A stretch of DNA of 61,668 nt, filler included, from Dimargaris cristalligena (taxonomy: Eukaryota), in NCBI GenBank assembly GCA_003614675.1. It is 4 parts of 4 records of this genome, joined end to end, with 100 filler letters (N's around TTAATTAATTAA, not from the genome) between each part and the next. Parts side by side here need not be neighbours in the genome. Positions count along the whole stretch, not along the records: positions 15,484 to 30,852 come from ML002894.1; 3 more parts are not named here. One strand, 5' to 3'. A model generated the notes under the pieces. The model was not told the DNA's origin. It saw only the letters and a list, made by a program, of their open reading frames with translations, and did not search any database. This document shows, in pieces, positions 4,628-51,494 of the stretch (within the stretch, counting starts at the first letter, position 1; every line of letters begins with the position of its first letter). A program made the position numbers and the translations under genes.

Positions 4628-4771
4628 ATATGGGTGAAATTCAGCCCAGCTATATAAGGGTTTACATTATATGTGTATGGGAGAATATATGGGAAATTTA
4701 TTTTTAACTAGTAATATTGGCCGAATCTAATGGATTTTTCGTTATACAGCTTGGATGAACTTCTCCCATAT
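4628..4771 (+). mobile_element. MITE copy 1 (136-bp core, ~30-bp imperfect TIRs, ATAT flanks)
   Basis: Left end atatgggtgaaattcagcccagctatataa; reverse complement of the right end atatgggagaagttcatccaagctgtataa. Four dispersed copies occur in the window. Confidence 0.8.
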
Positions 4772-4867
4772 GGTGGTGGTGGTATAGCCCTGCTGCATGG
4801 GAGGAAGTGTACGGTATGGGAAATATTCTACCAATCACACAAATTTCCCGGATTTTTTTTTCCGTCT

Positions 4868-5003
4868 GGGTGAAATTCAAGTCAGCTGTATACCATTTTA
4901 CATGATTTGTGTATGGGAGAGTATGTAGGAGTAACCATTTTAACCAGTAATGTTGGCCCCATCTAATGGATTTTTCGTTATACAGCTTGGATGAACTTCT
5001 CCC
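4868..5003 (+). mobile_element. MITE copy 2
   Basis: Same 136-bp element (gggtgaaattca...atctaatggatttttcgttatacagcttggatgaacttctccc), 100 bp downstream of copy 1. Confidence 0.8.
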
Positions 5004-5165
5004 ATCTGCATCACCATCAGTGTAATTGGCAGTTGGGTACTAATTTAACTGCCCGATTTCTATTTCATTTTTTTCCGGTATTGTTTCCCACAACCTCTAC
5101 CAAGGACTCCTTTGTCCCCACCCTCCCCCATAAAAAGAGGGAGTCCCGCCGCCTCCATGAATAGC

Positions 5166-5413
5166 ATCGACTGTACTTTACAGGATCATGTTAATAGTTT
5201 CTACAACTAAGCTGCTCCATTATTAATTTACAGCCGTTGACTAAAGTTGGTTGAGGAATGACAACCTGCCGTTCGTAAAGGGAGGTTTGTGGGTTTCGGT
5301 TTCACGACCGGGGCTCATTCGATGATCTTACCGGCCTTGATTCGCTGCTCCTTTGAAGAAGCAATTGATATTGGGGTTCGGTGAGGACGGCTAGGTATTC
5401 TGACAACTTTAGC
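5166..5413 (+). ncRNA. U3: U3 snoRNA (box C/D, intronless)
   Basis: 5' ATCGACTGTACTTTACAGGATCAT contains the GAC box, box A' and box A, complementary to the 18S 5' end. Also present: box C' GGTTGAGGA, box C CGATGATCT, box D TCTGA, and a terminal stem ctaaagttg (5251-5259) / caactttag (5404-5412). An AT-rich cataaaaa element lies ~30 nt upstream. Confidence 0.88.
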
Positions 5414-6345: not shown

Positions 6346-8051
6346 TTGGAGCAAGAGAAAAAATATCACCACCTCCCCTCCCATCAGTCCAATGTGCACC
6401 CCTTGGCTATTTAGTTATTTAGTGGCGGTGGACACTGATCATCCCCTGTACTTTTGTTTATAATTCATCTGATCAATGGAGTAATATTAAATATACGGTG
6501 TGTCTTTGCTATGAACCTAGTTGGCCGTCGGTCTAATGGCATTTCCAAGTGTTTGACGAGATTCTCTCTTTTATTGATTTTAATGAGTGGGTGGGGGGGC
6601 ATAAATCAATGACCAGCCAAACCTCTTGGGGCGAGGTGATTTTAAATTCCAGCCTTTAGGCCTCAATCCGGAAACTTCTTTATTAAGCGAGATTATATTT
6701 TTTTGACGTGGACTATAGTTCGCCGAAAACGGCTATTGGATAATCTTTCCAGGGAATCTAGGTGCACCATTCCTTTTATATCACCCAACCCCGACGCACC
6801 GGTCATGGAATTTAGGCATGTTGAATGATGCAGGGTAAAATTGGCGCAAGACTTCGCTAATTCCCCAATAATTGTGCACTATATATTTATTTTGTGGGCG
6901 GATATTCCCAAATATGTTGGGAAAATTTGAAAATGGCTGCTTCATGCTGGTAATTTGGTTGTTCAAGTGGGCGGCGCGACACGTGAGGAGGTATTGGTGG
7001 GAATTAGATTCACATAGCTATGGGTGGGATGGAATGCCCCCCTCTTCAGTGTAAGTCTGTGGAGAAGGGTTCGCTTTAGCCGAACAATGGGGCAATGAGG
7101 GTGTCAAGTCAGAAGATGATGATGATTCAGACAGGGGTTACGGACTGAGAGGTATCTAGACGGTCGGTCGATTAGGGGTGCCATGCCACTAAAAGGAAGA
7201 GCCTGGTTTGCCCAATGAAATTATCCTATATTTAAATCATGTCAACCCAGATATGATTATTATTATTAATTAACAGCGGCCTGCGTAGCCACTGCAGGAT
7301 GAGGGGGGTTAAGGAAATGGTATGTTGTTCTCTTTCTAATATTGCTGTGGGGGTCTGTCTTGGTGCTATTGGTACAGGCCAATGTTTGTAGCAGGGCTGT
7401 TCAATGGGATATAGGATCGCCTCAGGCCCCATGGCAATTGGGGTTAATTATAATAAGGTAGATGACATCTGGACATATTGGCGAGCCGACCTATGGGCAA
7501 AGATGTTCGACACCCATGGGGAACCAACCACTGTCAAGGGTGAAAAGGGGGGACCTCAACTGCAGAGTGAATGGTGTATATCCGCCAGCTAATCCATTGT
7601 TGCGCGCGATTGCTTGCTATTGGTGCGTGGATGACTAGGCCCGACGCGCCTGGAAACCCTGCCAACTCCGCACTATTCTCAACCGACGCACCCCAAGCCG
7701 TTCTGGGTTTCTCCCTCTTCTTTCTCTCCCTTGGCCGTTCGTTTGTTAGTTCGCCCCTTTGCCGACATTCCGTTTCTTCTTTCCAGCCGCGTTCTTTAGC
7801 CCTCTTATCAACCTCACCACACGGGCTTGGGTTACACACCTGCACTTTCCTCTCGTTAAACCATATCGTTCTACTGTTATTTAGCCGCGTGTACCACTTG
7901 ACCACCGATACCTTTTTTATATTCGTGAACTCTGTCGCGTACGCCAGTCACCTGGCAGTCCATACCCGCCCACCTCTTCTTCGGTACCCCGCCTATTACC
8001 GATACGACAGCCCCCAATACTCCGATCCCCCCTTGTTTGCCCAGCTCCACC

Positions 8052-11000
8052 ATGGAGGACTCCCAGCAGCAAGCCGCTAACAAATCAATATTTACTGTCT
8101 TGACTTTTCTAGGCAAGGCTCGTCGACGGGAGCGACTCCGCAGGGAGAATAGTTTCCCCAAGGCCCCCAAGTTTGATATTTTTGCCCCATTACCCCCCGA
8201 AGCCTACCGTCCTCCGCCCACACAGCCGCTGACCCCGACGGTCACGGTAACACCGGCGCAAGCGCCGACACCAACTGCTAGCCCAGATCGGTATCTGGGC
8301 CGCGCCACCTCCGAAGCTGGCCCGTCCTCCCAACCCGCGCGTCCCTCTTTCGCCACCCGCCGGACTCTGCAGCCGTCGGCCAGCGCCCGGTCCCATGTGC
8401 CTAACCCCGTCGACACCCGCTACATACCGCGTCCCCAATCGACTATCACTGCTGAATATGTCGGCCCTTTCCATCCAGCAGCCCCCCGCCCCCCACCGGC
8501 GGCGGTGGCTGCCTCCTCCATGGAACCCGATCGGCGGTCCGTGTCGTCGGCGTCCACCTGGGATTCCCAAACCAGTGCGGTAAGCCACTTCGGGTCCCGG
8601 CGGCCGCGGTTGTTCGGCAAGCCCCTCTTCCCCATGCTGCGGAAACGATCCAAGCACTGGCGACCCACCCGGACCACCGCCATCCAGACCCACTCCCGGT
8701 CCACCCTATTCTCCCAGCCCCACAATTCCAGTCGGTCCCGCGTCCCGCGAACCCCGCGGAACGGGTCGCGAACCCAGTTTTCCCCCCGGACTTCCCGGAA
8801 AAAGCGGCACGGTGGGGGGGTCACTTCAACGGGAGTGGGAACCACCACCGAGATGGGTACGGATCCATTAGACGTCGATGACCACCCCGTGCCCCCCTAT
8901 CATCCCCAGTCTACACCCGGTCCTTCGGCTCCGGCCCGACGAATCACCGTCGCCGAGGGCGTGAATCAGCGGGGTTCGGGAAAAGAAGCAGCGGAACGGC
9001 TGCGCGCTGCTTTGCGACCCTCCCATACCGTGCCCCAGCATAATCCCCAAATGTACCCCCATCCACCGGGCTATGATGTCCCCGGTGAACCCACTCAGCA
9101 CGACGAATGGGTGGATACGGGTCCCTCGCACGATCCCGCGACGGCTTGGCGTATGCGACGCCGTAAAAAGGAGCGTGCGCGGCTCAATGTGAAAACCTCT
9201 CCGCGGGCCCGCTCTCCCTTGGCCGAGCAACTGGGGCCATCCGAACTCGAGCCGGTGCCGGAACTCGAACCTGACCCCGAGCTCGAACCAGAGATGGAGG
9301 TGGACCCGTCATCGGTCAACCCCAAAGACTTACCGCGACGCACTTCATCCATGGCTCTGCATGCCCAGTTCCAGGAAAAACCCCATACAGTGGTTCGGAC
9401 GGTTAAACGTACCCAGACCCGAACCTCTATTCGGCCTCAGCCCTCCCACCACTCGGGGGTCTCCTCCGCCCACCCCCATAGCGGCGGTCCACTCTCCGAG
9501 GAAACGGATTACGGTAAACCCATTCGGTCAACCACCATCACCCGAACTACCGCCCGGCTATCTCCCCCTGGTCGCGCCCAAACCATGTATGTCCCAGCCG
9601 GCCAGCCCCACCCCAATATTGACGAGGATCCCGAACCGATGAGCTACCCCGCCGGTAGTCTAGGCCGCAAGTCGTCCCTACAGGAACGGACTCGGGGTCG
9701 GGATAGTGCCTATGGCGACCTAACAACCGCCACCCACGTTATGAAAGCCTACCAGCCCTCTTCGGCCTTTACCCCCTACCATTCGCAAGTCCCCACGCGG
9801 CCGGCCCCGTCCCAGGCCTCCGCCTCCCAATCGGCCAATATCTATGCCCCTGTCTTGACGTCCCGCCCCCAGGAGTGGTTCCCAATGAGCAGTGCTGGCG
9901 CCCCGCAATACCCCACGACTATCATGATGCCTCCCTTGGCCAACCTGGTCCTGCCGGCCCCGATTTCCCTCTCCTCTCCCCCCGAGCGGGAGGCACCGTT
10001 ACACCACAAAGGTAGCGATAACTCGCCTCGGGTCCGGAGCGGCAAACCCCCTCCCCCATCAGCTGGGGGCCATTCGAGCGACTCGGAACATTCTCCCTCG
10101 TCCGAGCGGACAGTTGAGGCTATTCATCGCCAAACCTCCCGCCTCCAAGTGATTGGTGGCGGCCCCTTTTCCGCCCTGCCACCTCTGGGCACCTTGCCCT
10201 CTCTACCCTCCACCGTTCATTTGCAGCAGGCCCTAAACCTTGAGCCATTAACTTTGGATGTGAATCCGTCAACCACCCAAGTTATACCCAGTGCAGCGAC
10301 AGTAGCCGTGGGCCGAGCTCCCGAGCCCGAGTCTAAACTTGAACCGATGGCTGATTCCGATCGCGAGTCCCCCAAAGTATCGGACGATCCCCCGTATCTT
10401 TCCCTGCGATTCCTGAAAAGTAATACCCCCGAGGCCTATCGACTGGCGCCTTCCCTGTTCGACCAGCCCTTTGAAGAGTTCCTGACGAAGCAGGAGCGTA
10501 AACTCAATCGGCAGGTGTCCACCGCTTCGTATCACGCGGCCCAGGGTCCCATCACCACGACTATAAAACCCCAATTTGCCGCCACTTCGCCCCGGGGCCG
10601 GCCCCCGAGTTACACCCCACGGGCGACTACTGCCGCTATTTTACCGGACTTGAACATGTTTTCCCGGGCCGAAATCAACCAGGCTAGCGACGGCGAGACC
10701 AATTTAGTGCAATTGGCCGAAGATTGTATGACCGGGCCGGAACTAACCGAAGAACAGCAGGCTTTAGCTAATGCCCCAATCCCTGACGTCATTCCCGACG
10801 GCTGTATCCGGGACCTCCTGGACATGCCGGACTCGACGGGCCTGGCATCACCCTTTGAAATCGCCGCGGACCTGGATTCTGCCTTCGAAGACCACGACTA
10901 CCACCAAGATCAAGATCAAGCCCACGGCCATGATCGAGACCCCCGCTCGTATCGCACTCACGAGCATGATCGTAATTATGCGACTGAGGAATTACAGTAC

Positions 11001-14000
11001 CGCCAGGCCCAAACCCAGGCCTGGGCCAATTCCATCCCTTCCACCAGCCCGCATATCGACCCCTTATCCGAAGACCAAAGCGACCTGTCGCAACTCTTAC
11101 GGCGGGCGGCCCCCGAGTTTCCATCCCCGCGCTCTTACCACCCGGCCTACCCCGAATCCTCCATGGAAGCCGCGGTCGATGACGAAGTCATGTCCATGCC
11201 CGACGAAGGGAACGAATTTAATACCGACAGTCTGGTCGAATCGCGGCCGACCGCCTTGTTTCTCCAATCCACCGGGCCATTATTGGGGGGCGGCGCCGGT
11301 GGTGGTGGTGATCATACCTCCACGTCGACGACGTCCTTCCCCCCGCGGCAGCAGCCCACTTCGACGACATACCCCACGGAAACGAGCCCACCCGACCGAA
11401 GAAAAGCACGGGCCGCCGCACGGATGTCGGTTACGCAGTCCCCACCAACTCGTTCTACGGGTTCAGGAGAGGCCCGTTCACTGGCTCTTAGTTTGTCCCC
11501 TCGCACCCTACCCACCACCGGACCATCCGATAAGCTTCGCCACCGCGGGTCAATTTTCGACGGGGTGGCGGACCGACCCGGTACCGAACGTACCATTAGT
11601 CGGAAAGTTTATCACGATGGGCCGTACCAAGTTGTGGAGGAAATCGAGGAAGTCGTGGAGATTGTCACGGACACGGAGGAGGCGCGGGATAAGCACCCCG
11701 CATTAGACACTGCCGAGGGGAGGGACCAATACACCCAGCCCTATGAATCTGAAACCGGCGCGGTTCCATCGGAATCAGAGCTAGAGTCGGAGCCAGCCAC
11801 GGAATCCCACCGTGCCATGAAATCCCATCATTCGGATCCTCTAACCCCGTCCGCGTTTCACGATCTATCTCTGGCCACGGACGAGAGTTTGCCACCGTTG
11901 ACCTCGGAATTACCCTCTCTACCGTCTTCCTTTGACAATGCCTTGGGTGGTGGGTCCGGTAGTACGGGGTTACCATCCGACCAGGCTTTCCCTACCGCTC
12001 GTGGAGGAGCCCCGTATTCCCAACCCGAGCCTCGCCTCCTGTCACCGCCGCTTGCACCCCGGTCCGAAAAAGCCCGGGGTAAACAACCGGCGGCTGGTAG
12101 TCAAAGTGGCTCCTATCATCTGCCGCTCTCTTTCACGCCTCCGTCATCGTCCTTACCGTTACCCGCTCCACCGGTTGCCCGACCGCAGTCTCCGCCCCGC
12201 CCTAAATTGTGGGAACAATACGCCCGGACTATTCATGGCGGAGGTCACACCCCGAGATCTGTCTCGGACGTCTCCGATCCTCTAACCCATCCTGGTGCCG
12301 GTGCCGGTCCTGGATACCCCCAGACCTACTCCCCCCCGCAACTCCATCAGCGAACGGCCCTACCAGACTTCACCCCCGCCACTGACGCTGCCACCAATTC
12401 GTCCACCGAATACAATATCGCCACCCCCATCCGAGTACCCTACCTCGACGGACAATCCGTGTCCCTAAGCGCCGAATTCAAACGCGGTCTCCTCCAGGAT
12501 TTATCGGGTACCCAGCCGAATGTTCCAACCCGGTACTATCGCTATGATCCCTCGGCCAATACTAAAGTTGAACCGTCCCCCCCGGCGGTCCCGGCCACGG
12601 ATATGGCTACAACGGCCCCGGAATCTGATTCGTCCCATTTGGTGTCGACTATGGACCATGTCAAGTTCAGGTTGTCCATGTTGGAAAATCAGCTACAGGG
12701 TAAACAATCCATGAAAAGTTTCTATGAAGCTCGGCCTCCTACCGGACCGCAGCCCGCTGTTCCAACGACCGGGTATACCCGCTCTGCTGCTCCGAAGTCT
12801 GATGGACGTAACCTTGGATCCAAGTCTACTACTAAGATGGTTAATCAGGGAAGTCGACCGAAATCAGTGGGTGCTTCTGCAGGCGGAGGAGGAGGAGGTG
12901 GTGGACCAGGTGTTACTTGGAACCCTACCAATAATCTCAGTCCTCCTCAACCAGGTCTTTTGAAGCCATCCGTATCTACTTTGGAAGGGGACCAAGAGGA
13001 ACTATATAGTCGCCGGGAATTCGATCCTTCTTCGGTTGGCGCCGATGGTCACTCAACGTCGTTGCCGCCCTTATCCGAATATCCACCCCCACCCCTACTT
13101 CCACTCCCGCCCCCACCCGTTAAGCAGCCGCAAGCCACCGGCCCTTCGCCGAAAATTGCCCTACCACCACGGAGGAGACCATCCCAGTCTACGGCAGCGA
13201 ACCATGCTAATCCTATTGCTGCTAAATACCAGTCGCCCATTCATTTGCCCGTGCCACAAATTGATACTACGGCTCCCACTCCCCCCGAAAGTCAAAAAGA
13301 GTTGGCGGCCGTCTCGGTGCATGTCTATTCACGCCCACCATCCCATCCGGTCAACAGAGCAATCGCCAGTAGCCCACGTACCTCGGAAGATTGGGGTAGT
13401 CCGGGTCGTTCGAACACCACCACCACCAATAGTACCCTATCTACCGGCAATGCCACAGCCGGGTCGGCGGGGGTGGCCGTTCAGCGCCGGGTCAGCTGGC
13501 TCCCGAGCCACCGGCCCACATCACCCATTCCCGTGTCGGAACACTTGCCCCGTACCCCTGTATCACCGACCCGTCCGAACGCCATGTTCCTAGACTCCCC
13601 TCCCTCGGCGAGCGTGCGCACCAAGAGTCCCCTTAATGTGAAGTTCTGGTATCATTTGGACGATCCCGGTCATCCGCTGAGTACGGATGCACGTCGGGAG
13701 GCCCGGCGACTCAGTCAGGGATTGGGGGTCAATGTAGACCTCCAGAACGACCCGACAGCGGCGGCGGATACCCAGGCGGGAATGCAACGGCGGCGGAGTT
13801 CACAGTCGGCTCGATTTAAGCCCCCACCCTCGCCCTCTCCACCACCGGCGGGGGAGGATGTCTCCGAAGAACTGTCCGCCCGTAGCTCCTCATCTCTGCA
13901 AAATGAATCTGGGGTACTATACCCCCACCCCAAGTCCCCCCGTCCCCACCTCCCCCCCTTCGACTAAACCGCGTTCCGCGGATGACGAGGGCCAACTGAC

Positions 14001-15383: not shown

Positions 15384-15483
15384 NNNNNNNNNNNNNNNNN
15401 NNNNNNNNNNNNNNNNNNNNNNNNNNNTTAATTAATTAANNNNNNNNNNNNNNNNNNNNNNNNNNNNNNNNNNNNNNNNNNNN
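15384..15483. other. Artificial contig spacer (N44-TTAATTAATTAA-N44)
   Basis: 100-nt linker with stops in all six frames, repeated three times in the window. Confidence 0.97.
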
Positions 15484-15753: not shown

Positions 15754-16158
15754 TTAAAAGATCCTAAATAAAAAACCGGGTGAACTAATTACTCCATTGA
15801 CTACAGGCGAATGTACATATTTAATTTTCTGAAGGTCGGCTTCTTTGTCTGAACTGACATCTTTATGATGGAGCTGTTCCGGAAGGGGCACTGGAGACGG
15901 AGCGCGTCTAAACAGGTGGCCAGATTGGTCAGAGTCGATTAGTGGAACTGGATGGCGGTGATATTCGTGGGAGTGACTGGGTTGCTTTCGGCGACTTAGT
16001 GGAACCTGCGATGTGGCTAAATCGCCGGGATGGAAGGTGACGGGTGCACGTTTGACCAGTTCAGCGTGATTTTGGGGAACTTCAGGGGCCACTGGTGCGG
16101 CTGACCCAAGGGTAGGGGCTAGGATAGTGATGATGAAAAAGGACAGGTTGAACTTCAT
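15754..16158 (-). CDS. Small secreted protein (134 aa) with several dibasic (Kex2-type) sites
   Basis: Signal peptide MKFNLSFFIITILAPTLGSA; sites LVKR/AP, LSRR/K and LFRR/AP; TATATAA upstream at ~16344-16350. Confidence 0.8.
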   Translation of the reverse strand: MKFNLSFFIITILAPTLGSAAPVAPEVPQNHAELVKRAPVTFHPGDLATSQVPLSRRKQPSHSHEYHRHPVPLIDSDQSGHLFRRAPSPVPLPEQLHHKDVSSDKEADLQKIKYVHSPVVNGVISSPGFLFRIF

Positions 16159-24230: not shown

Positions 24231-26477
24231 CCTACAGGGGGCAGAGCGGAGCGAAGGAGGCTAAAGGAGAGGGGCCAGAAAGCTGGGTCGGATAGATGGC
24301 GACGGGTGGGGACCAAGGACTAGCTAGAGAAAGGATAGCAAGCCGATAATAATAACAATAATAGGAATAGTGAGAGTAGGAATAATGATAATATAAAAGG
24401 GGAGCTAATAGCACCTAGGTACAGCGGTTACAAGGATATAAACTAAGTAACCGACAATAAGCATCCAGAGAAAGCAAACTGAGGCAGTAGATGAAGAAGG
24501 AAGGAGATTGAAGAGGAGTATAAGCTGGGCCAAAAGACCAGGTGTAAACAGAACACATGCGCATATAGCATACAGAGGGATCCAACAACACAGCGTCTTG
24601 GTAACCTTCGCCAGGGGAGAAGGGCTGCTCTGGCTGTTAATAACCACTACTACTACTTATGTTATACTATTATATTACCACGCGTGCCTGAAGGGGGGGA
24701 AGGGGAGAGGAGAGAAGAGAAGAGAAGGGAGGAGAGAAGAGGAGAGGAGAGGGAGCTGCTGTCTCTCGGGTGGAATTTCCTCCCCTACCCAAGTAAAGTA
24801 GACCTTCCGGTATGCCCAACTCCACTAACTACCTACCTAGTCGTACATGGCTCTAACAAACGGCGATAATCACCCAGCGAAATTCAGTGATTCTATCTTC
24901 CACGTCCCCCAAACATAGTGCCTACTTGCCCCATAGGTTTAGCACTACCGCTCTTGACCATTTTACTGTAAATGGCGCGCTTGGCAAGACCATGTTTTTC
25001 TGGAACTATACATTCAAGAAGCCCATAATAAACATGATGTAGTCCATGTTAATTCGGCTGCTTAACCAGAGCCTTGGGAGTGCATTTGGCGGTCGCACGG
25101 CCATTACACTTCCCGCTGGGCCACTGATACCCAAGATCACATGACTGTACCCCTTTCTCCTATCCTCCCTTAGTCTCGCTCGAGTTAGCCTAGGCCGATG
25201 CCGTCTCTCTGCACTCCCCCCACGGGACAAATCAGTCCGTTGTCGAAGGTATGCCAGGGGAGATCAGTAGTGCCACGCCATACATCGACCACCGCATATC
25301 CGCTCGATGGCTGGGAGGGGGGGAAGGTGGCATAAGAGACCGCGGCTGACCCACACCCCTGGGGCTGTACTTCAAGCGACGACCGGTTAGGGTTAGTTAG
25401 TAAGACAGGTAGGTAGGTGTAGGAAGAAGGGGTGGTAGAGGAAACATTGAAAAGTGATTTATTCGACTGGACAGGACAGGATCCAAGGGGCTTGGGCTCA
25501 ATATTGGCCGCGCCTATAATGCGGAATGAGATTGACCGGTGTTTCTCCTCAACAACGGCTGGGGGTGGCACATAGCTGCCATTCCCATCTTAATGAAAAA
25601 ATATATATATCCAAATCAACACCTTAACAGTGAACCCCAAGCCATAATTGTCATGATTGCCGCTTGGTTTATGAATTTCATGAGTGTGTCAACTCAGGGA
25701 TGAAACCCCCATTTTTGCCTACCAGATCCTATTTTATATACGGATTTTGTGATTATATGTCTATCCGATTGCCCTGGAGGGCTATATTTAACTTCGATCC
25801 TTTAGGGATATTCCTATGCCCAAAAAGAATAAGACGGTCTATTATATATACGCGAGGTGCAATCACGCCCCTAGTGTCAACAAGGGATTATCTACTTTTA
25901 CCTACCTCTGCGTACGTCAAATATGATATGCACATATTTAGGGACTACTCCCAAGTGCAGCTGATTAAATTTGACGTATGTGAGAGGCCCTCTCCTCCTC
26001 CCTCGCTTTCCCAGCCTTCCAAAGAGAGATGCAGACACCCCCAATCACCGCCCCCCGCGGTATCATAAGCAATAGGCCTGTCTTGGTGACCAATGACAAC
26101 CAGTTGCCATGGAAGTGCTTTCGTGGTTATATTGGATATTAGTATTACTTAAGTGAGGAGACCAGGCACATGTTGAAGAAGAAGAGAGAAAAAAAGTGCC
26201 ATAATGTGTATATATAAAAAAAAAAAGCCGTCAGAAAAAAATCCACCGGATTCGTGCGCTGTCGCACTTGTTATCGAGTATAGATGGAAAGTACATTGGG
26301 CCACGCCCCAACCGTACATGTTGCCACTGTGAGTCCACCCACCCACTCATTCCCTCACTCGCAGGCCTTTGCAATAGATCGTTTAATAAATAAAAAAGAA
26401 ATCCGATTTTATTCATAGTGCATATGTGTGGATTCATAGCATTTCCACCGCCATTGGGCGTCTACTCTACGCAGTCG

Positions 26478-27212
26478 TTAATTTCCGGGGGTTTGGTTTC
26501 CCACTAGAGGCATTATGTTGGACGCAGGTCTTGGCATAGAGGGCGCCGCCCCATTCACTTTTCCGGTGCAGCCGTGCTGGTGGGCTGTTTGTTCGCATTT
26601 CTTAGAAAATGCTGCGGGACACCGCCGGCAACGGTAGGGCGGCGTCGTTTTAGCTGGCTGCCAATGCGCTGTCAACCGGCACTTGTGTTTATAGCTTTTG
26701 GTACATACATCACAGCGAAACTGGTAATGGGTACAGTCCAATTGCAAATGCTGGTCATATCGCTTCCGGCTAGCGAATATTTGCCGGCAAGTGGCACATT
26801 TAAGGAGCTGCGCGCACTCACCCGACTCCCGGTGACCCGCCAGACTATGGCCGTTACCAAATACTTTTTGGCAGTCGGGGCAGGGTTCCGAAACATGTTG
26901 CCAATAGAGGTGGCCCTGTAACAACTCGGCATGGGTGAAAAGGGCCCCACAATCCGGGCATGGTAAGTCGGCCTCGCCAGGCATGCTGGAGCTTTCCCTA
27001 GACAGCTTGGTCGTTACACTGCAATCTTCAGTGGGTGCGTTCACTGGGCCTCGAGTTTCGCCCAGAGCATGGCTAATAGAGGGCGGCGATAGAGAACTGA
27101 GCTCCTGATCGGCCACCAGATTTGGCAATGTCGGTTGGGCATGAGCATTGTGATAATTGGTTACTAATGATATAATAAAAAGAGATGCGAGTCTAAAGGG
27201 TCGATTCATCAT
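26478..27212 (-). CDS. Signal-peptide protein with five tandem C2H2/C2HC-type zinc fingers (244 aa)
   Basis: N-terminus MMNRPFR-LASLFIISLV-TNYHNAHA/QPT. Five CX2CX12H units (CPDC, CPDC, CATC, CDVC, CRRC), each with F/Y at the canonical position. Confidence 0.85.
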   Translation of the reverse strand: MMNRPFRLASLFIISLVTNYHNAHAQPTLPNLVADQELSSLSPPSISHALGETRGPVNAPTEDCSVTTKLSRESSSMPGEADLPCPDCGALFTHAELLQGHLYWQHVSEPCPDCQKVFGNGHSLAGHRESGECAQLLKCATCRQIFASRKRYDQHLQLDCTHYQFRCDVCTKSYKHKCRLTAHWQPAKTTPPYRCRRCPAAFSKKCEQTAHQHGCTGKVNGAAPSMPRPASNIMPLVGNQTPGN

Positions 27213-28524
27213 GATTATGGTGACCTATTTCCGTAGTCTGTACAATCTAGAAGCAGTTGGATGGAAAACGATAGTAGAAAAAAAATAAATGAAGTGCCTA
27301 CAGGCGGTATATGAGGGTATGCTTAGGACTGGTATTATTGGTATGGTGCCTAAGCGGGTAGAGGCTGTGTGGTCTTCGAGAGGATAACTAGATACGGTTC
27401 CTCAAGGCGGGGAGTAGCAATGTTTAAATACAAAATGAAGATGCTGCCCTGGGCTAATGCCTCACTTGTAATTTATTGATTTATGGTGGGGAGGCAGGTC
27501 CACATCTCTTTTTAAAACACCATTAAGCCCTATTCGATGCAAAGGGATGGTGTCGCCTCTGGTTTACCTCCAGTGCTACGTTAAATAATGACCATGGACT
27601 GAGAGGGCGGAATCTGCCGTAGGACACGGGCTGAGCGTGTAACGCCCTAACGTACGAGGCAGAGCAAATGGTTTTTGGCGGCGGGCCCAGTCAGTATAAG
27701 TAGCGAGTATTAAGGCCAGGCTGCTTTTAGGCGTGTTGGGCTAAATGGACTTATGGCGCAAATCGCGGAATATCCACTATGCCTCCTTGCCCGAGTACCA
27801 TTTATTCAGAGATCTTGAGCAAGGAGTGTTGAAACAAAACGAGTGGTGGTCTATAATAGAAAAATATCAGATACCCACTGTGGATTGCCTCATATAATTA
27901 TAAGGACATGCCTGTCATACTATATATGGCTTATCCAAGAAGGCTGGCAGTTCCCAATACATTAACTAAAAGGCTATGTCCAATTTTCCCCCATTGGGTA
28001 AATTAGCCAAATATCTTAAAGCTGGTGGCGCCCCCCCCCCTCGCTAATAGCCAATGCCCACCACCAGTGTGGGGGGTATTTCGTATACTTCGGCTAGCCC
28101 ATTATTGCACCCAAGTGGGCTGCCTGGTTCTTGTCATACCCCTGTTTCCCCTTATACACTCCTACCGGCTTGGTTTATAGTCCATGCTAAGCCAGTTGTG
28201 GACCGATGCCACCCGCTCACTCTTTCGGAGCCCCCGATTTGGTAGCTCAGTGGGGAGTTGCTGAAGGGTCATTTTGCATTGAGTAGAGGAATATTCTCCG
28301 AATACAAACCCCGCCTATTCATAGATAGTTTCTTACCATAGATTGGTTGTACTCGATTTATCTGATTCTATGGTGCCTCCTATTATAGAAGCACCCGGCA
28401 TATTTTTACATCATCCGCTTTTCGCTGCAACGGGGGCCAGGAGGTGCTAAGTAACTGGGAAATTTCAAGGGGGTGGGATTTCAGGCTCAATGGTGGTTAG
28501 CAGCTGGGAAACGATATTAGTTAC

Positions 28525-28670
28525 ATATGGGAGAAATTCATTCAGGCTGTATAATGAAGAATCCATTGGATGAGGCCAATATTATTGGTTAAAAGGTATT
28601 CTCACATATATATTCACCCATACATGTATTATGTAAAACCTTATACAGCTAGTTTGAATTTCACCCATAT
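28525..28670 (-). mobile_element. MITE copy 3 (inverted), ATAT at both ends
   Basis: atatgggagaaattca...tgaatttcacccatat, the reverse-complement homolog of 4628-4771. Confidence 0.8.
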
Positions 28671-29046: not shown

Positions 29047-30852
29047 CTAATTGGCCATAGCCCGGAGCGTAGTGTTCGTGATAGGCGATTGAAGGATACT
29101 TGAGTGATAATGCGCGGCCATAAGCCACTGGTCCATTAGCTCGTTGCTTAAACCTTGATCTAAGAAAGCCGAGTCGGGAAGAGGGGGATTTTGGGGCAGG
29201 ATGGAACGGAGGGTGAGAAAGGAAACGGATGTTTTCAATTGACCATCTTCGCCCACGGTTCTATTAATAAATAATTGAGGGTTCAAACTCCATTTATCAT
29301 CGCAGACATCTTCTTTGCAAAATATCATGGTAGTTTCACTCTGGCACTCTCTCTCTAAAGTTTCGACAGCCTTTTTGAAGCCCAGAGCTCGGGCACAGTT
29401 GTATAACTTCTTTTTATCCCCGGAGGTATAAAGGTATTCAGGTAAGATTCGCTCTTTGCTTTTGGCCCAGGGTGATTCTAAATATCCCAACTCCATGGCC
29501 ACTAAATCAAGGAACGTACACATATAACTACTAAATCTCCATTTAACATTGAGTTCGGCGATATAGTCTTGTAGTAAATGGCTTCCTTGTTGGACCAATG
29601 CTCCGATGATTAGAGAAATTGAGTATATAGTGGTCATTTGACGCATAGCATACTGTTCCATTTCACGCCCGTCTCCGGGGGCCAGTCAGGATTGAAGATA
29701 AGCTGCCAAATGGAACCATGGTCGAGAGATTGTCCGTTAGTGATGTAATTTCCATAATCATGTCATTAAGATTTCGGAGTTGTTTAGCATCACTGTGGAG
29801 GGCTATCTTGACTAATGGGAACAAATCCATCAGTTGCGCCGAGTTCAACTCGTCGAGGCGCACGTAGCACCATTCGGAATAAACCCGTTCCAATTCGGTC
29901 TTGAACTCTGGATTACTCAAAAGTCCTATTTCGGGAGCCAGATCATTGTCCCAGCGTACTTCGAGTTCCTGTTCATCGTCCCAGTGTAGGTCGTTAGTAT
30001 AATGTGCCGCCTCAACTTCCGTAAATTGGGTACTATTGACGACAATATATCTTTCCAAATCGTTATCAAAAGCGTATTTTTCTCCTGTTGGTGAGATACT
30101 GATTTCATGGAGGTAGCCATACGCCAAATAGAATAAGGCAGAGGTCAGTTCGACCCTTAGAAGCTTCTTTATATGATCGGCACTCCATTCTAACTTGGAG
30201 TATGGCTGAAATTTGTCTAGTTGATCCATAATCTCTTTGTATTTCTAGGTAGGCGAGACAGGCGTTGGGGAAAAAATATAACTAAGTTAGAGATAATCTG
30301 TATTGTCGATATGTGAAGGTCATATGATTGGCCTAATGTAATGAACACGATATGGCAATATGCCGAGAAGTGTTGCTCTTAGTGTTGTCGAAGGAGCCTA
30401 GGGAGCGTATTCCTGAAAACTTTCGGCCCAATTAAGATTAGATTGGCTAGGTCACTTACATTGGCTAGTCTTCTATATTCTGGTTTGGAGTTGACCAGTG
30501 CCTGATTATATTTAGATGTTTGGGCTAATTGACCCAAGCCACGCGCAGGTAGGTAGTTGGTTACAATCCCAAGAATTTCCGGGGGGAAATCTATAGTCTT
30601 CCTCCCTGTTCTTTCCTTAGGTTGGGTATGGTCGTCAGTGGTGGTTTCCTGTTCACCGAACGCTGTATTTTGCTGAAACCGGGTGTTGTCGCCCATTAAG
30701 ACCGCATCCATCATCTCGTCGGGCTGGGACGGAGACATCGATGACCACTCGTTCGAGGCTTGCGAAGCATAATTGGCATGGCCAGGGGCGCTAGGGTGAC
30801 CGGAAACCATGGCACAGTGGGCCAAAAGCATACCCACCAAGGTAACGGAGTA
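29047..30852 (-). CDS. Signal-peptide + F-box-like protein; 5' end cut by the contig edge; intron 30245..30459; frame break near 29677-29681 (possible pseudogene)
   Basis: Partial signal peptide ...YSVTLVGMLLAHCAMVSG/HP and F-box-like IDFPPEILGIVTNYLPARGLGQLAQTSKYNQALV. A GTAAGT..CTAG intron joins RRLAN to KYKEIMDQ in frame. The downstream ORF 29047-29661 starts immediately after the TGA in a shifted frame. Confidence 0.7.
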
Positions 30853-30952
30853 NNNNNNNNNNNNNNNNNNNNNNNNNNNNNNNNNNNNNNNNNNNNTTAA
30901 TTAATTAANNNNNNNNNNNNNNNNNNNNNNNNNNNNNNNNNNNNNNNNNNNN
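30853..30952. other. Artificial contig spacer
   Basis: N44-TTAATTAATTAA-N44. Confidence 0.97.
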
Positions 30953-31635: not shown

Positions 31636-31756
31636 TATATAAGGGTTTGCACTATATGTGTATGGGAGAATATATGGGAAATGTATTTTTAACTAGTAAT
31701 AGTGGCCGAATCTAATGGGTTTTTCGTTATACAGCTTGGATGAACTTCTCCCATAT
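31636..31756 (+). mobile_element. MITE copy 4 (left TIR mostly missing)
   Basis: tatataagggtttgcactatatgtgtatgggagaatatatggg...ttatacagcttggatgaacttctcccatat, nearly identical to copy 1. Confidence 0.8.
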
Positions 31757-42352: not shown

Positions 42353-43360
42353 CTAACGAACGGTATTTATCCACATGCAAGAAAACTGCGGGTTTTCAGT
42401 GGATAGAGTTTTGCATCGCTGAGATACTGTGTCACGAACGACGGACAATTCGGCAAATAATGGCACCATCAAAAGCTCAACTTGTCCGGATGCCCTCTTC
42501 AGAGCGGCGATGAGTTCCTTACACTGGTGGCCCTGGTCATCCGTGAAAACCTGGGCGGTCATTCCCCCGGTCGACTGCGACTGGTCGAGCAACACCAGCA
42601 TGTAGCGCTGAAGGGGGGTGTTGGTCATTTTTTTCAGAAGTTGCAAAAGCGGAAGCACGTTAGCCAAACCATTCGTCGGAAATCTCTCGGGACCCATGGA
42701 CCGGGCGTACGCGGCAAAGATATCCAGATCAACGAATGATGCATCGACACATTGGTGCTGGGAACCGAAGATGAAGGGTAATTTCGAAATCATGTCACCC
42801 AGTTTGTAAATTTCCCCGACTAGTACATCCTGCTTGTCGTTCACCGCCTCGACTGGATTATCCAGTTTGCTGTTCACCACCTTGATGAGATCAATCGACG
42901 CTTGGCGTAGCTCCTCCGCGATCTCGATAAAGGCGTCGTTCTGAGGGGTCGAACCCATAATGGAATAATAGGAAGTGGAACTCCGGTGCTCAGGCGACTC
43001 GGATAGTTCAACGGTGGTCTGCCGATGGTCGGGAATCTCATGGCCGTTGCGGTCCCACTGGTGGCTCCGATCCGCCGAATTATCGACGTGGAGGTTCGGG
43101 AACATCCCGGAACTGCCTTCTAAATCAGGGAAAAGGGCAGGCGATGCATCCCCGGCCAAGGGATCGTCTAAATAGTGGTACAGATCCGTATCATCAAAGT
43201 CACTCGACGCAAAGTTCGAACGATCAAATTCGGGGGACCTGGGTGTGGCCGGGGCGGCCCAGCCGCTGGGTTGGTGATGTAGAAACGATGCCGCGCTGGT
43301 CGATGCGAATACAAAGATACTCAATACCACTGTGAATGAGGTCATGATTGATGCTGGCAT
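42353..43360 (-). CDS. Secreted protein of unknown function (~330 aa)
   Basis: Signal peptide MTSFTVVLSIFVFASTSAA, acidic low-complexity linker and helical-looking C-terminal domain; intronless; TATA-like tracts upstream. Confidence 0.75.
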   Translation of the reverse strand: MPASIMTSFTVVLSIFVFASTSAASFLHHQPSGWAAPATPRSPEFDRSNFASSDFDDTDLYHYLDDPLAGDASPALFPDLEGSSGMFPNLHVDNSADRSHQWDRNGHEIPDHRQTTVELSESPEHRSSTSYYSIMGSTPQNDAFIEIAEELRQASIDLIKVVNSKLDNPVEAVNDKQDVLVGEIYKLGDMISKLPFIFGSQHQCVDASFVDLDIFAAYARSMGPERFPTNGLANVLPLLQLLKKMTNTPLQRYMLVLLDQSQSTGGMTAQVFTDDQGHQCKELIAALKRASGQVELLMVPLFAELSVVRDTVSQRCKTLSTENPQFSCMWINTVR

Positions 43361-46261: not shown

Positions 46262-46361
46262 NNNNNNNNNNNNNNNNNNNNNNNNNNNNNNNNNNNNNNN
46301 NNNNNTTAATTAATTAANNNNNNNNNNNNNNNNNNNNNNNNNNNNNNNNNNNNNNNNNNNN
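46262..46361. other. Artificial contig spacer
   Basis: N44-TTAATTAATTAA-N44. Confidence 0.97.
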
Positions 46362-47915: not shown

Positions 47916-50900
47916 ATGGAGTACCAGAACAATGCCCAGTTCAAAGACTTCTCGTACTGCTTAACCCGGGAAGTGGACCAGTTTGTGGCCGTCAAACTGT
48001 AAGTTAAACTGAATGGCTAAAGCGCCCCAACACAACTACCAAGAGCGCTCATTGGCCTCCGGTTGACCCGAATTGCAACATCGCTAAGCGATGTCAACCG
48101 TATTCCTAACGGCCCAAGTTATGAAGTGCCGGTTTCTAACTCCAGTTAGAATATATTTATTGGTGTATGTTATTGCGGCGCATTGTCGTTACAGGGTATC
48201 ACTAGAGGGAAATTTGAAGCGGTTTCCCGATGCTGTATCACGGGAGATTAACGAAACGATTGAAAGACTGGGACTTGGCGATGTCCCTTCTAACGTAGAG
48301 TAGGTTGACGTAATATCTATATAGATGGCATTATATAGGGATACTGGTTGAATAGCTGCGCGAGTGACTATAGAAAGGCATGGCCACCAAACCCATGCCT
48401 AATATTCCTAGATATTATTGTTTAAATGCCTACACTCCCATACAGTCCCGCCAACTCCATATTCGCCACCGTCGAGATATACGCCGACGGGTATCCATTA
48501 GGGATTCCCTACCGAACCTCATACCGCCCTACCAAGCACAACATGTAAGTTTTTATGGTAGACACATATGTCGCTCACTTCAATACGTGGTGTTTCATTA
48601 CCATGGTGCCGGACTATTTCAATAACCATTTGCATCCTATACACTCAAATTATGACTTATCAAATTACACCTATCAATTATCGTTTGGTTATTTAGTTGG
48701 AACGAATGGATCACCCTACCAGTCAAATACTGCGACATTCCTCTGACTGCTCAACTTCTGTTCAATTTCTGGTGCCTGGAAGCCCCCCGGGAAATTCAAA
48801 TTGTCGGGGGTTGTACACTATCCCTTTTTACCTGTAACCAGTAAGTGCACTATTCCATACTTCTCCGAAATATTCCCTATACCCCCCCCCAGTAAGCACT
48901 GCTATTTAACCCGGCGTCCTCGCGCCTAAACTGGTAAATTAGGCACCCAGTCAACTAATCATCATAATGCCCTGTCCTGCCATTTGTTAAATATTATTCA
49001 ATTTAGTAAACTACGCCAAGGGCGCCAGAAACTGACCCTGTGGGATGGCCAATTAGCCGACCCCCTGAGTCCCACCCAAACCCCGGGAAAAACGGGCACT
49101 AAAACCGAAATGGATCGCCTGGAAAAACTAATAAAGAAGCACGAAAACGGCGACCTGGCGCGCCTGGACTGGCTGGATAAACTGGCCTTCCGGGAGATTG
49201 AAAAAATCCACCAAATAGAAGCCCGGCGTACCGTTGCCACGTTTTTGTACATTGAATTGCCCAAATTCGATTTCCCCCTCATTTACAGCGAAACCGAAAG
49301 CGCCGATCCCTATTTAGTCACCCCTTTATTCCCCCGCATTGCATTCGTCCACGACCCCGAATTGCACCGGGAGAATCTGGCCGAAGCCAAACACCGGCGC
49401 CTGCTCCGGAGCCAACGCCACGGCCCCCTGGACCGGGAACTCAAACCCAACGCCAAACTGCGGGACGAATTAAACACTATTCTCCAGTACCCCCCCACAA
49501 AGGAACTCAATACCGAAGAAAAGGACCTGCTGTGGAAATTTCGCTTCTACCTGGCGCGCGACCGCAAGGCCCTGACGAAATTCCTGCGCTGCGTGGCTTG
49601 GTCGGATCCGGTGGAGAGTCACCAGGCCGTTGATCTACTGACCCAGTGGGCCGATATTGATGTGGACGATGCCTTAGAATTACTCGGACCGGCCTTTACG
49701 AACCAACAGGTGCGGGCCTATGCGGTGGTGCGACTGCAGCGTGCCGACGATGACGAGCTGCGCTTGTATTTGCTGCAGTTGGTACAGGCCCTACGGTTTG
49801 AAGCCATGGGCCAGCGGCTGAGCCATCCGATGGCCGGTGATGCCATTGTGATGCCGACGGCGACTTCAGGGGTGCCCACCGTAACGGCTACCACCACCAC
49901 TACGACGACAACGAATAATGTGCATCTGGCGAACTCTACACACGCCCATTTTGGGTCACCTGCACCACCGGCAAAGTCGTTGACCGGGTTGGCATCATCT
50001 GTACCTGGTCCATCGACCTCTGAATCGGGCTTACTGACGACTGCTGATCCCGCCCTCTCCCACGCCTCAGCCAACGAAGGTGCCACCTCCGCCGCCGCCG
50101 CCACCACCAGTACGAGTACCAGCACCACCTCCACATCCAACTTGGCAGAATTCTTAATCACCCGGGCGGTACAAAGTCCCATCTTGGGCAATTACTTCTT
50201 TTGGTACCTGCGGGTCGAATGCGAGGACAAGGTTGTAGGGCCCATGTACACCCAGATAGCCCTACAATACGAACAGACCATGGGCCGGTTACCCGGCGGA
50301 GCGGAACGACTTGATATTTTGGCCCGCCAAACCGCCCTCATGACCAAACTCTCACGTCTATCCCTCCACCTACGGCAAATGAAAGAGGCCCGCCCCCAAA
50401 AGATTGCCTACCTCCAAAACTACTTGGCCAACCCCAAGAACCAACTGCAACGCTTCCCAGCACCTCTGCCCCTCCCTCTTGACCCCACGGTGGAGGTGGT
50501 GGGTATCATACCCGAAAAATCGACGGTATTCAAGAGTAGTATGCTGCCGCTGTCGTTGACTTTTGCCCGACGGAGACCCCCGAGCCGACGTAGACCACGC
50601 GACGGCCAGATGGCCGGAAGTGGGGCTGGGGGTGGGGAGAGCGACGAAGATGATGGAGTTGGGTATTCGGACGAAGAAGAGGAAGAGGTAGGGAAAGAGA
50701 GTGAAGCGGAATACCGACTCATGTTCAAGACGGGCGACGACCTGCGCCAGGACCAGCTGGTGATCCAGATTTTTACACTCATGGACCGTCTACTCCGCCA
50801 GGAGAAATTGGACCTCCGACTCACTCCGTATAAGGTGCTGGCGACGGGGGCTGACCAGGGTCTGATCCAATTTATACCATCCAGCGCCCTGGCGCAGGTG

Positions 50901-51494
50901 CTAACGGAGCACAATGACAGCGTCCTGGCCTACCTGCGCCTGCACAATCCCGACCCGCGCCCGACGGTACCCTACGGCGTGACGGCGGGGGCCATGGACA
51001 CATACATCAAGAGTTGCGCCGGTTACTGTGTCATCACGTACCTTCTAGGGGTCGGCGACCGCCACCTGGACAACCTTCTCATGACCCGCGACGGACGGCT
51101 CTTCCACATTGATTTTGGGTACTTCCTCGGCCGCGACCCTAAACCCTTCCCACCCCCCATGAAACTGTGCAAGGAAATGGTCGAAGGCATGGGGGGCGCC
51201 TTCAGCGTCCAGTACCAACGGTTCCAGGCCTACTGCTTCGTGGCCTTTAGCGTGCTTCGTAAATCAGCCAACCTGATTCTGAATCTTTTGGCGTTGATGG
51301 TGGAAGCGAACATCCCGGATATCGCCATTGAACCCGACCAGGCGGTGGCTAAAGTGCAGGAGAAATTCCGCCTGGATCTGTCAGAAGAGGAGGCGACCCA
51401 GTACTTCCAGTCGCTGATTAATGAGTCGGTGAGTGCGCTGTTCCCCCAGGTGATTGAAACGATTCACCGGTGGGCCATGTACTGGAAACAGTAG
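47916..51494 (+). CDS. VPS34: Class III phosphatidylinositol 3-kinase, 5 exons: join(47916..47998,48195..48299,48446..48544,48697..48840,49007..51494), ~972 aa
   Basis: C2 domain (WNEWITLPVKYCDIP), helical domain (EEKDLLWKFRFYL, LYLLQLVQALRFE), kinase motifs FKTGDDLRQDQL, GVGDRHLDN and HIDFG, and C-terminal IHRWAMYWKQ. All introns are GT-AG with consistent phase. Confidence 0.96.

Follow-up and report, generated by a model that had tools for sequence, protein, structure and literature searches.

In a 61,668-nt stretch of DNA from the fungus Dimargaris cristalligena (assembly GCA_003614675.1), called the window below, we analysed an intact 244-codon open reading frame (ORF) on the minus strand (26478-27212, stop included), which forms a single exon in the favoured gene model. 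Its predicted product, P0001, begins with a signal-peptide-like segment, continues through a linker, and carries an array of five zinc fingers. This three-part architecture is real, and the ORF is exactly as the original prediction, made from the sequence alone, had described it. That prediction had also named a host fungus as an example of a target, in agreement with published descriptions of D. cristalligena, sequenced by Ahrendt et al., as a biotrophic mycoparasite of other fungi (PMC6784888). The reading that we favour, though tentatively, is that the ORF is a lineage-restricted single-exon gene for a candidate secreted effector resembling MoHTR1, MoHTR2, and MoHTR3 of Magnaporthe oryzae, which are reported as small, species-specific Cys2His2 (C2H2) proteins, secreted by the fungus and reaching the nuclei of rice (PMC7672089; PMC10189765). 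An N-terminus that follows the classical rule for signal peptides, the biotrophic mycoparasitic habit, and the MoHTR precedent together support this reading.

The open reading frame and its zinc fingers

The ORF frame is beyond chance: in random windows of the same size generated with a Markov-2 model, the longest ATG-initiated ORF was 203 aa, and an ORF of at least 244 aa was found in 0 of 40 windows. P0001 contains five C-X2-C-X12-H motifs, starting at C85, C111, C139, C167, and C195. The same motif occurred seven times in the six frames of the whole window, and five of these occurrences fall within this ORF, sharing one frame at spacings of 26-28 codons; the fingers, like the ORF, are far beyond chance.

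The fingers were delimited by motif, by alignment to Protein Data Bank (PDB) structures, and by AlphaFold2; all coordinates within the ORF refer to the minus strand. Finger 1 (C85-H106; 26895-26960) is of the CCHH type with an H-X4-H ending. Finger 2 (C111-C133; 26814-26882) is of the CCHC type (H-X5-C) and has a glycine at the canonical position of the second histidine; finger 3 (C139-C160; 26733-26798), also CCHC (H-X4-C), contains the basic patch SRKR and has an aspartate at that position by alignment. The substituting cysteine of fingers 2 and 3 lies one or two residues past the canonical second-histidine position. Finger 4 (C167-H183; 26664-26714) has three ligands, with an alanine at the second-histidine position, no substitute ligand, and no histidine or cysteine in the next eight residues; it is still predicted as a beta-beta-alpha unit and is followed by KTTPPY. 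Finger 5 (C195-C215; 26568-26630) is again CCHC (H-X3-C), with the cysteine exactly at the canonical second-histidine position. The motif scan thus agreed with the earlier count of five fingers, one C2H2, three C2HC, and one without an obvious fourth ligand. Alignment of KTTPPYRC with HTGEKPY-C of solved fingers likewise bore out its description as a TGEKPY-like linker, along with the SRKR patch.

A Pfam scan, which had been proposed as a check, placed the array above the cut-off for zf-C2H2 (PF00096; E 1.4e-9, 38.3 bits vs a cut-off of 25.2, four stretches) and for zf-C2H2_4 (PF13894; E 6e-10, 39.4 bits vs 27, four stretches). In sequence comparison with the PDB, P0001 matched DNA-bound finger arrays in register, first Aart (4.8e-13) and then ZNF568, CTCF, and PRDM9. 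AlphaFold2 run on the single sequence gave an unusable model (pLDDT, the predicted local distance difference test, of 35.7). With an alignment of 26 rows, made of P0001 and 25 of the shorter HMMER matches, it yielded five strand-strand-helix units, with mean pLDDT values of 76-95 in 10-residue blocks over residues 81-220. Foldseek with this model retrieved the same arrays (CTCF ZnF3-11, E 1.5e-8), at the low TM-scores that are expected for flexible arrays.

In three of the four non-canonical fingers, a cysteine stands as fourth ligand within X3-X5 of the histidine, and all five fingers retain the core aromatic residue. Given the rarity of cysteine, these cysteine-for-histidine changes point to selection for zinc binding over decay. 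An internal intron starting at GTGAGT (26821) was rejected, because it would remove the cysteine pair of finger 3 and, being 52 nt long, would break the frame. A possible poly(A) signal, AATAAA, was read in the sequence about 65 nt past the stop codon (26408-26413). No second copy of the ORF was found within the window.

Start codon and N-terminal segment

The first ATG (M1, 27212) is the most likely start of translation, judging from four features of the locus: an ATG-free leader, a frame that stays open ahead of the next in-frame ATG, out-of-frame ATGs between the two, and the lack of a fitting upstream exon. The leader (27213-27502) contains an in-frame stop four codons before M1, and the nearest upstream ATG on the same strand is at 27505, 293 nt before M1. 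Gaps of at least 293 nt between successive ATGs are uncommon in the window (29 of 1950), and the ATG-free leaders of six comparison starts, one of which matches its annotation exactly and another of which is set by the Vps34 protein, measured 212-426 nt. The next in-frame ATG is Met77 (26982-26984). Ahead of it the frame runs open through 76 codons, which occurred in 81 of 2631 cases under the composition of the window; three ATGs in other frames, at 27148, 27142, and 27070, stand between it and M1. The original prediction had named an internal start as what would overturn it; such a start is disfavoured by the leader, the out-of-frame ATGs, and the 76-codon open frame.

No model of an upstream coding exon with a donor-like site was obtained within 700 nt. 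Allowing any GT...AG pair gave 37 models, which would need an intron of 326-973 nt behind a first coding exon of 3-107 nt and were rejected; the introns of the Vps34 gene in the window are about 100-180 nt long and have GTAAGT donors. A miniature inverted-repeat transposable element (MITE) in the leader was also rejected: the 23-nt imperfect inverted repeat found there (27165-27187 and 27503-27525; blastn E 0.87) has no further copy in the window and was taken as chance.

Codons 1-25 (27138-27212) read as a signal-peptide-like segment composed of MMNRPFR, the hydrophobic core LASLFIISLV, and TNYHNAHA, followed by Q. The assignment was made with a crude classical rule of our own, not with SignalP: a non-negative n-region, an uncharged nine-residue window with a mean Kyte-Doolittle (KD) hydropathy of 2.2 or more, small residues at positions -3 and -1, and 15-32 residues in total. 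The N-terminus of P0001 passes this rule, with a KD of 2.64 in the hydrophobic window, a charge of +2, and cleavage after AHA. Two further ORFs of the window, of 335 and 134 aa, pass as well and likely carry genuine signal peptides. Among real intracellular N-termini, the rule was passed by 2 of 383 (2/147 poly-finger, 0/118 Vps34, and 0/118 PAK proteins), a false-positive rate of 0.5%. For random sequences the rate was 1.3-3.2%, from 25 of 1879 random ORFs, 74 of 3240 ATG-led frames under the whole-window model, and 66 of 2081 under an AT-rich intergenic Markov model; a single one of 34 real intergenic ATG-led open frames passed. The 10-residue hydrophobic core is too short for a membrane anchor. 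Since the core is too short for an anchor and the rule is passed, the protein would probably enter the secretory pathway if M1 is used.

AlphaFold2 (26 rows) placed a low-confidence helix at residues 8-23. The linker that follows (codons 26-83; 26964-27137) is predicted to be disordered, with pLDDT below 50 at residues 24-76. Its 58 residues include 10 S, 7 P, 7 L, and 5 T, a moderately S/P-rich composition that is close to the S/P-rich linker of about 60 aa described originally.

Three other ORFs of the window, all on the minus strand and all without a Pfam family, have signal-peptide-like starts. The 134-aa ORF (15754-16158), which shares its contig with the zinc-finger ORF, starts with MKFNLSFFIITILAPTLGSAAP and contains several dibasic sites followed by AP (VKR-AP, FRR-AP); it may encode a small secreted protein processed by Kex2. 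The 335-aa orphan ORF (42353-43360), on another contig, starts with …MTSFTVVLSIFVFASTS/AAS and is a candidate for a secreted protein. The 63-aa ORF (728-919) starts with MVSLRFTIVAVLAVAPVVVQA/HP and may be the first exon of a gene for a secreted protein.

The effector reading and its rivals

If translation starts at 27212, the product would have a hydrophobic N-terminus and would by this means enter the secretory pathway. Once mature (about 24 kDa and basic, pI 8.5), it would act as a nuclear effector like the MoHTR proteins: small, secreted where parasite and host meet, and taken up by the host hypha. There it might bind host nucleic acid or, given its CCHC fingers, host proteins. Expression, signal-peptide function, uptake by the host, and nuclear action are all steps that we infer.

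Several observations weigh against this reading, and composition is the first of them. The first 25 codons have a GC content of 0.35 and a GC content at third codon positions (GC3) of 0.28, vs a GC3 of 0.56 in the remainder of the ORF (binomial P 0.0044). The corresponding GC3 of the three other signal-peptide-like ORFs is 0.56-0.64, and eight other starts have a GC content of 0.48-0.71 over their first 75 nt. Codons 1-25 therefore look like a non-coding leader or an intron, and they contain a pyrimidine-rich ...TCATTAG (27164-27186) that resembles a 3' splice site, with GC content jumping right after it. Codon-usage log-odds are about zero for the ORF vs +0.19 to +0.49 in six reference exons. 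Within the array, the full CCHH pattern is found in finger 1 alone and finger 4 lacks the fourth ligand; by eye, no clear nuclear localisation signal was seen in P0001, only the small basic patches SRKR, KHKCR, and RCRRC. Moreover, the ORF was first picked for its oddity, which weakens the signal-peptide statistics, and a look-up of RNA runs covering 26200-27700 listed none.

The relatives of P0001 count on the same side. A HMMER scan of 1.84 billion representatives returned 17,617 matches, of which the best 150 are long poly-finger proteins (513-5427 aa, 5-19 finger stretches) with identities of 24-33%. Ten matches were looked up: eight were named animal poly-finger proteins (frog, killifish, beetle, fly, lizard, aphid, and tick) and two were unnamed. 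Because identity is this low and the named best matches are animal, the likeness of P0001 to polydactyl C2H2 arrays is, on sequence grounds, generic and not orthology. Neither a self match nor an ortholog was found in the proteomes of D. cristalligena, Dimargaris verticillata, Dispira, and Tieghemiomyces in the collection.

Other searches gave similar results. A word-indexed homolog search produced 67 candidates, none of which scored; 44 pattern matches in metagenome contigs included none confirmed by tblastn; and the ESM Atlas returned generic C2H2 clusters only, with a recognition value under the usual threshold. Exact look-up found neither P0001 nor its Met77 form, a search of low power, as only 1 of 10 window ORFs is present exactly. 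By these searches the ORF is an orphan, uncalled by public annotations and apparently lineage-restricted. One set of Dimargaritales genomes is reported to have been annotated ab initio with Funannotate (PMC9866270). Ab initio calling of this kind can overlook small genes whose codon bias is poor.

A rival that comes close in probability, although unlikely in itself, is that P0001 starts at M1 and is a small intracellular, nuclear zinc-finger regulator of the parasite itself, with a fortuitous N-terminus derived from a T-rich leader and with secretion absent or inefficient. Classical finger arrays are overwhelmingly intracellular, and all structural matches of P0001 are nuclear DNA-binding proteins. 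The non-coding composition of the signal-peptide codons, the 3.2% of T-rich random leaders that yield signal-peptide-like starts, and the selection effect of an ORF singled out as odd favour this rival too. However, the two arginines, the uncharged 10-residue core, and AHA-Q follow the classical rules no less closely than those signal peptides of the window that are likely genuine, and only 2 of 383 real intracellular proteins pass the rule.

An unlikely rival, of nearly the same standing, is that the ORF is not a functioning gene but an unexpressed or decaying zinc-finger relic or a very young proto-gene that is still open. It would account for the absence of the ORF from the public proteomes of the species and of an ortholog from related annotated proteomes, for a codon bias of about zero, and for the departure of four of five fingers from CCHH with one ligand lost; the ORF also lies in a gene-poor stretch, with a copy of a dispersed repeat 1.3 kb upstream. 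On the other hand, all 244 codons are intact, including 84 before and 29 after the fingers, and the cysteine-for-histidine changes and kept core residues look selected. The ATG-free leader resembles those of real genes; finger remnants are absent from the other frames and the flanks, and the window contains no second copy. Absence from the proteomes also loses weight where ab initio annotation of Dimargaritales genomes (PMC9866270) passes over small, poorly codon-biased genes.

A 5' untranslated region (UTR) intron that removes M1 and leaves a finger-only protein of 168 residues starting at Met77 is very improbable: the intron (GTAGGC at 27301, the sole donor-like site at a typical distance, to TCATTAG at 27164; 138 nt) has a length typical for the genome, an acceptor with a pyrimidine tract, and a GC jump there from 0.17-0.43 to at least 0.53, and it would account for the AT-rich signal-peptide codons, but the donor is weak vs GTAAGT of the Vps34 introns, the spliced leader would carry a 35-codon upstream ORF (ATGs 27148 and 27142), the 60 codons from acceptor to Met77 would be open by chance in about 5% of cases (our own estimate, (61/64)^60), and the codon log-odds there are +0.08 in frame 0 vs -0.19 and -0.18 in the other frames.

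As to the start, the use of M1 with an N-terminal extension that is young and unshaped by the codon usage of the genome best fits all observations. The AT-rich signal-peptide codons suggest that this extension arose recently in evolution, by recruitment of leader sequence. A bolder form of this reading, which we hold to be quite improbable, is that this haustorial parasite of early-diverging fungi exports a five-finger CCHC-rich protein into the hyphae of its Mucorales host, where it binds host chromatin or transcription factors, its signal peptide newly recruited from AT-rich leader DNA in front of an existing finger array; it would be the first transcription-factor-mimic effector from fungus to fungus.

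If P0001 is truly secreted, the idea of the MoHTR-type nuclear effector would carry over from plant pathogens to Zoopagomycota that parasitise other fungi. The ORF would then offer a small, concrete, and testable candidate, whose AT-rich codons would exemplify how leader sequence can give rise to a secretion signal. If it is not secreted, it would be one more lineage-specific zinc-finger ORF, and even then an example of small, poorly codon-biased genes missing from the public annotations of the species. The sequence features are real; on present evidence they do not amount to a high surprise.

Genomic surroundings and known systems

The window contains N runs around TTAATTAATTAA, a six-frame stop linker, at 15384-15483, 30853-30952, and 46262-46361. 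These spacers recur every ~15.4 kb, and the window therefore consists of four separate, near-equal contigs; genes on opposite sides of a spacer are not neighbours. The zinc-finger ORF is on the segment 15484-30852 and the Vps34 ORF (48984-51494) is on another. The Vps34 ORF showed 100% BLASTP identity to a D. cristalligena protein at 99% query coverage, with 73% identity in Dispira simplex, 72% in Tieghemiomyces parasiticus, and 65% in Dimargaris verticillata. A second D. cristalligena protein model (P0154) matched the window exactly over one exon block. A PAK kinase on the same segment as the zinc-finger ORF was 77-83% identical to Kickxellomycotina proteins vs 73-74% to Mucorales proteins, in a comparison restricted to proteins of 798-2275 aa and with no Dimargaris protein among the matches listed. 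These identities fit, short of proof, an origin of the segment from the parasite and not from a host.

Upstream of the zinc-finger ORF, the closest neighbour is a pair of abutting ORFs of 204 and 188 aa on the same strand (29047-30244, minus; 212 and 193 codons from stop to stop), without a Pfam family, which probably belong to a single orphan gene interrupted by a short intron or a frameshift. Three of the four contigs share a dispersed repeat of about 120-147 nt, with 77-82% identity among copies (4628-4772, 4867-5008, and 31638-31756; inverted at 28524-28670); the last copy is on the ORF's own segment, 1.3 kb upstream of it. The repeat may be an element like a MITE or a short interspersed nuclear element (SINE). 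The Rfam scan of the window identified only a U3 snoRNA gene (5167-5408, plus strand; RF00012, 47.6 bits vs a gathering score of 34), which sits between the genes for prephenate dehydratase and PSF1, and the tRNA scan found none. An open frame of 2012 codons from stop to stop (7929-13967, plus strand) is of low complexity and rich in P, S, and T, and its GC content of 0.59-0.64 is well above that of the rest of the window.

Among known systems, P0001 resembles the polydactyl C2H2 arrays in its finger period of 28 residues and its one TGEKP-like linker (KTTPPY); fingers 2-5 are in register with Aart over 109 residues, and the array aligns with ZNF568/ZFP568 and CTCF. Unlike these arrays, P0001 has a signal-peptide-like segment, three of its four linkers are not TGEKP-like, and the last histidine is replaced by cysteine in three fingers and missing in one. 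The use of cysteine for histidine as the last ligand within a beta-beta-alpha finger is shared with the CCHC classical fingers of FOG-type proteins and ZNF750, a likeness of ligand pattern only. FOG-type CCHC fingers bind proteins (GATA-1). The ZNF750 finger, formerly termed degenerate, is reported to bind zinc through CCHC (PMC10465944).

A literature search by titles and the starts of abstracts returned no nuclear or C2H2 effector from mycoparasites (Zoopagomycota). For Magnaporthe oryzae, 20 predicted secreted proteins with DNA-binding domains are described, half of them C2H2 (PMC7672089, PMC10189765). The original prediction had found it paradoxical that a classical zinc-finger protein should carry a secretion signal, a view made outdated by the secreted C2H2 proteins MoHTR1-3 of the same reports. 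Like these, P0001 is shorter than 300 aa (244 aa), has a signal-peptide-like start (a signal peptide in the MoHTR proteins) followed by a C2H2-type region, is species- or lineage-restricted, and comes from a fungus whose food is the living cells of its host; the likeness is one of architecture only. The MoHTR proteins are described as having one C2H2 domain with basic residues on either side, a defined nuclear localisation signal, and a plant target, whereas P0001 has a tandem array of five fingers, of which three are CCHC, no evident nuclear localisation signal, and a fungal host.

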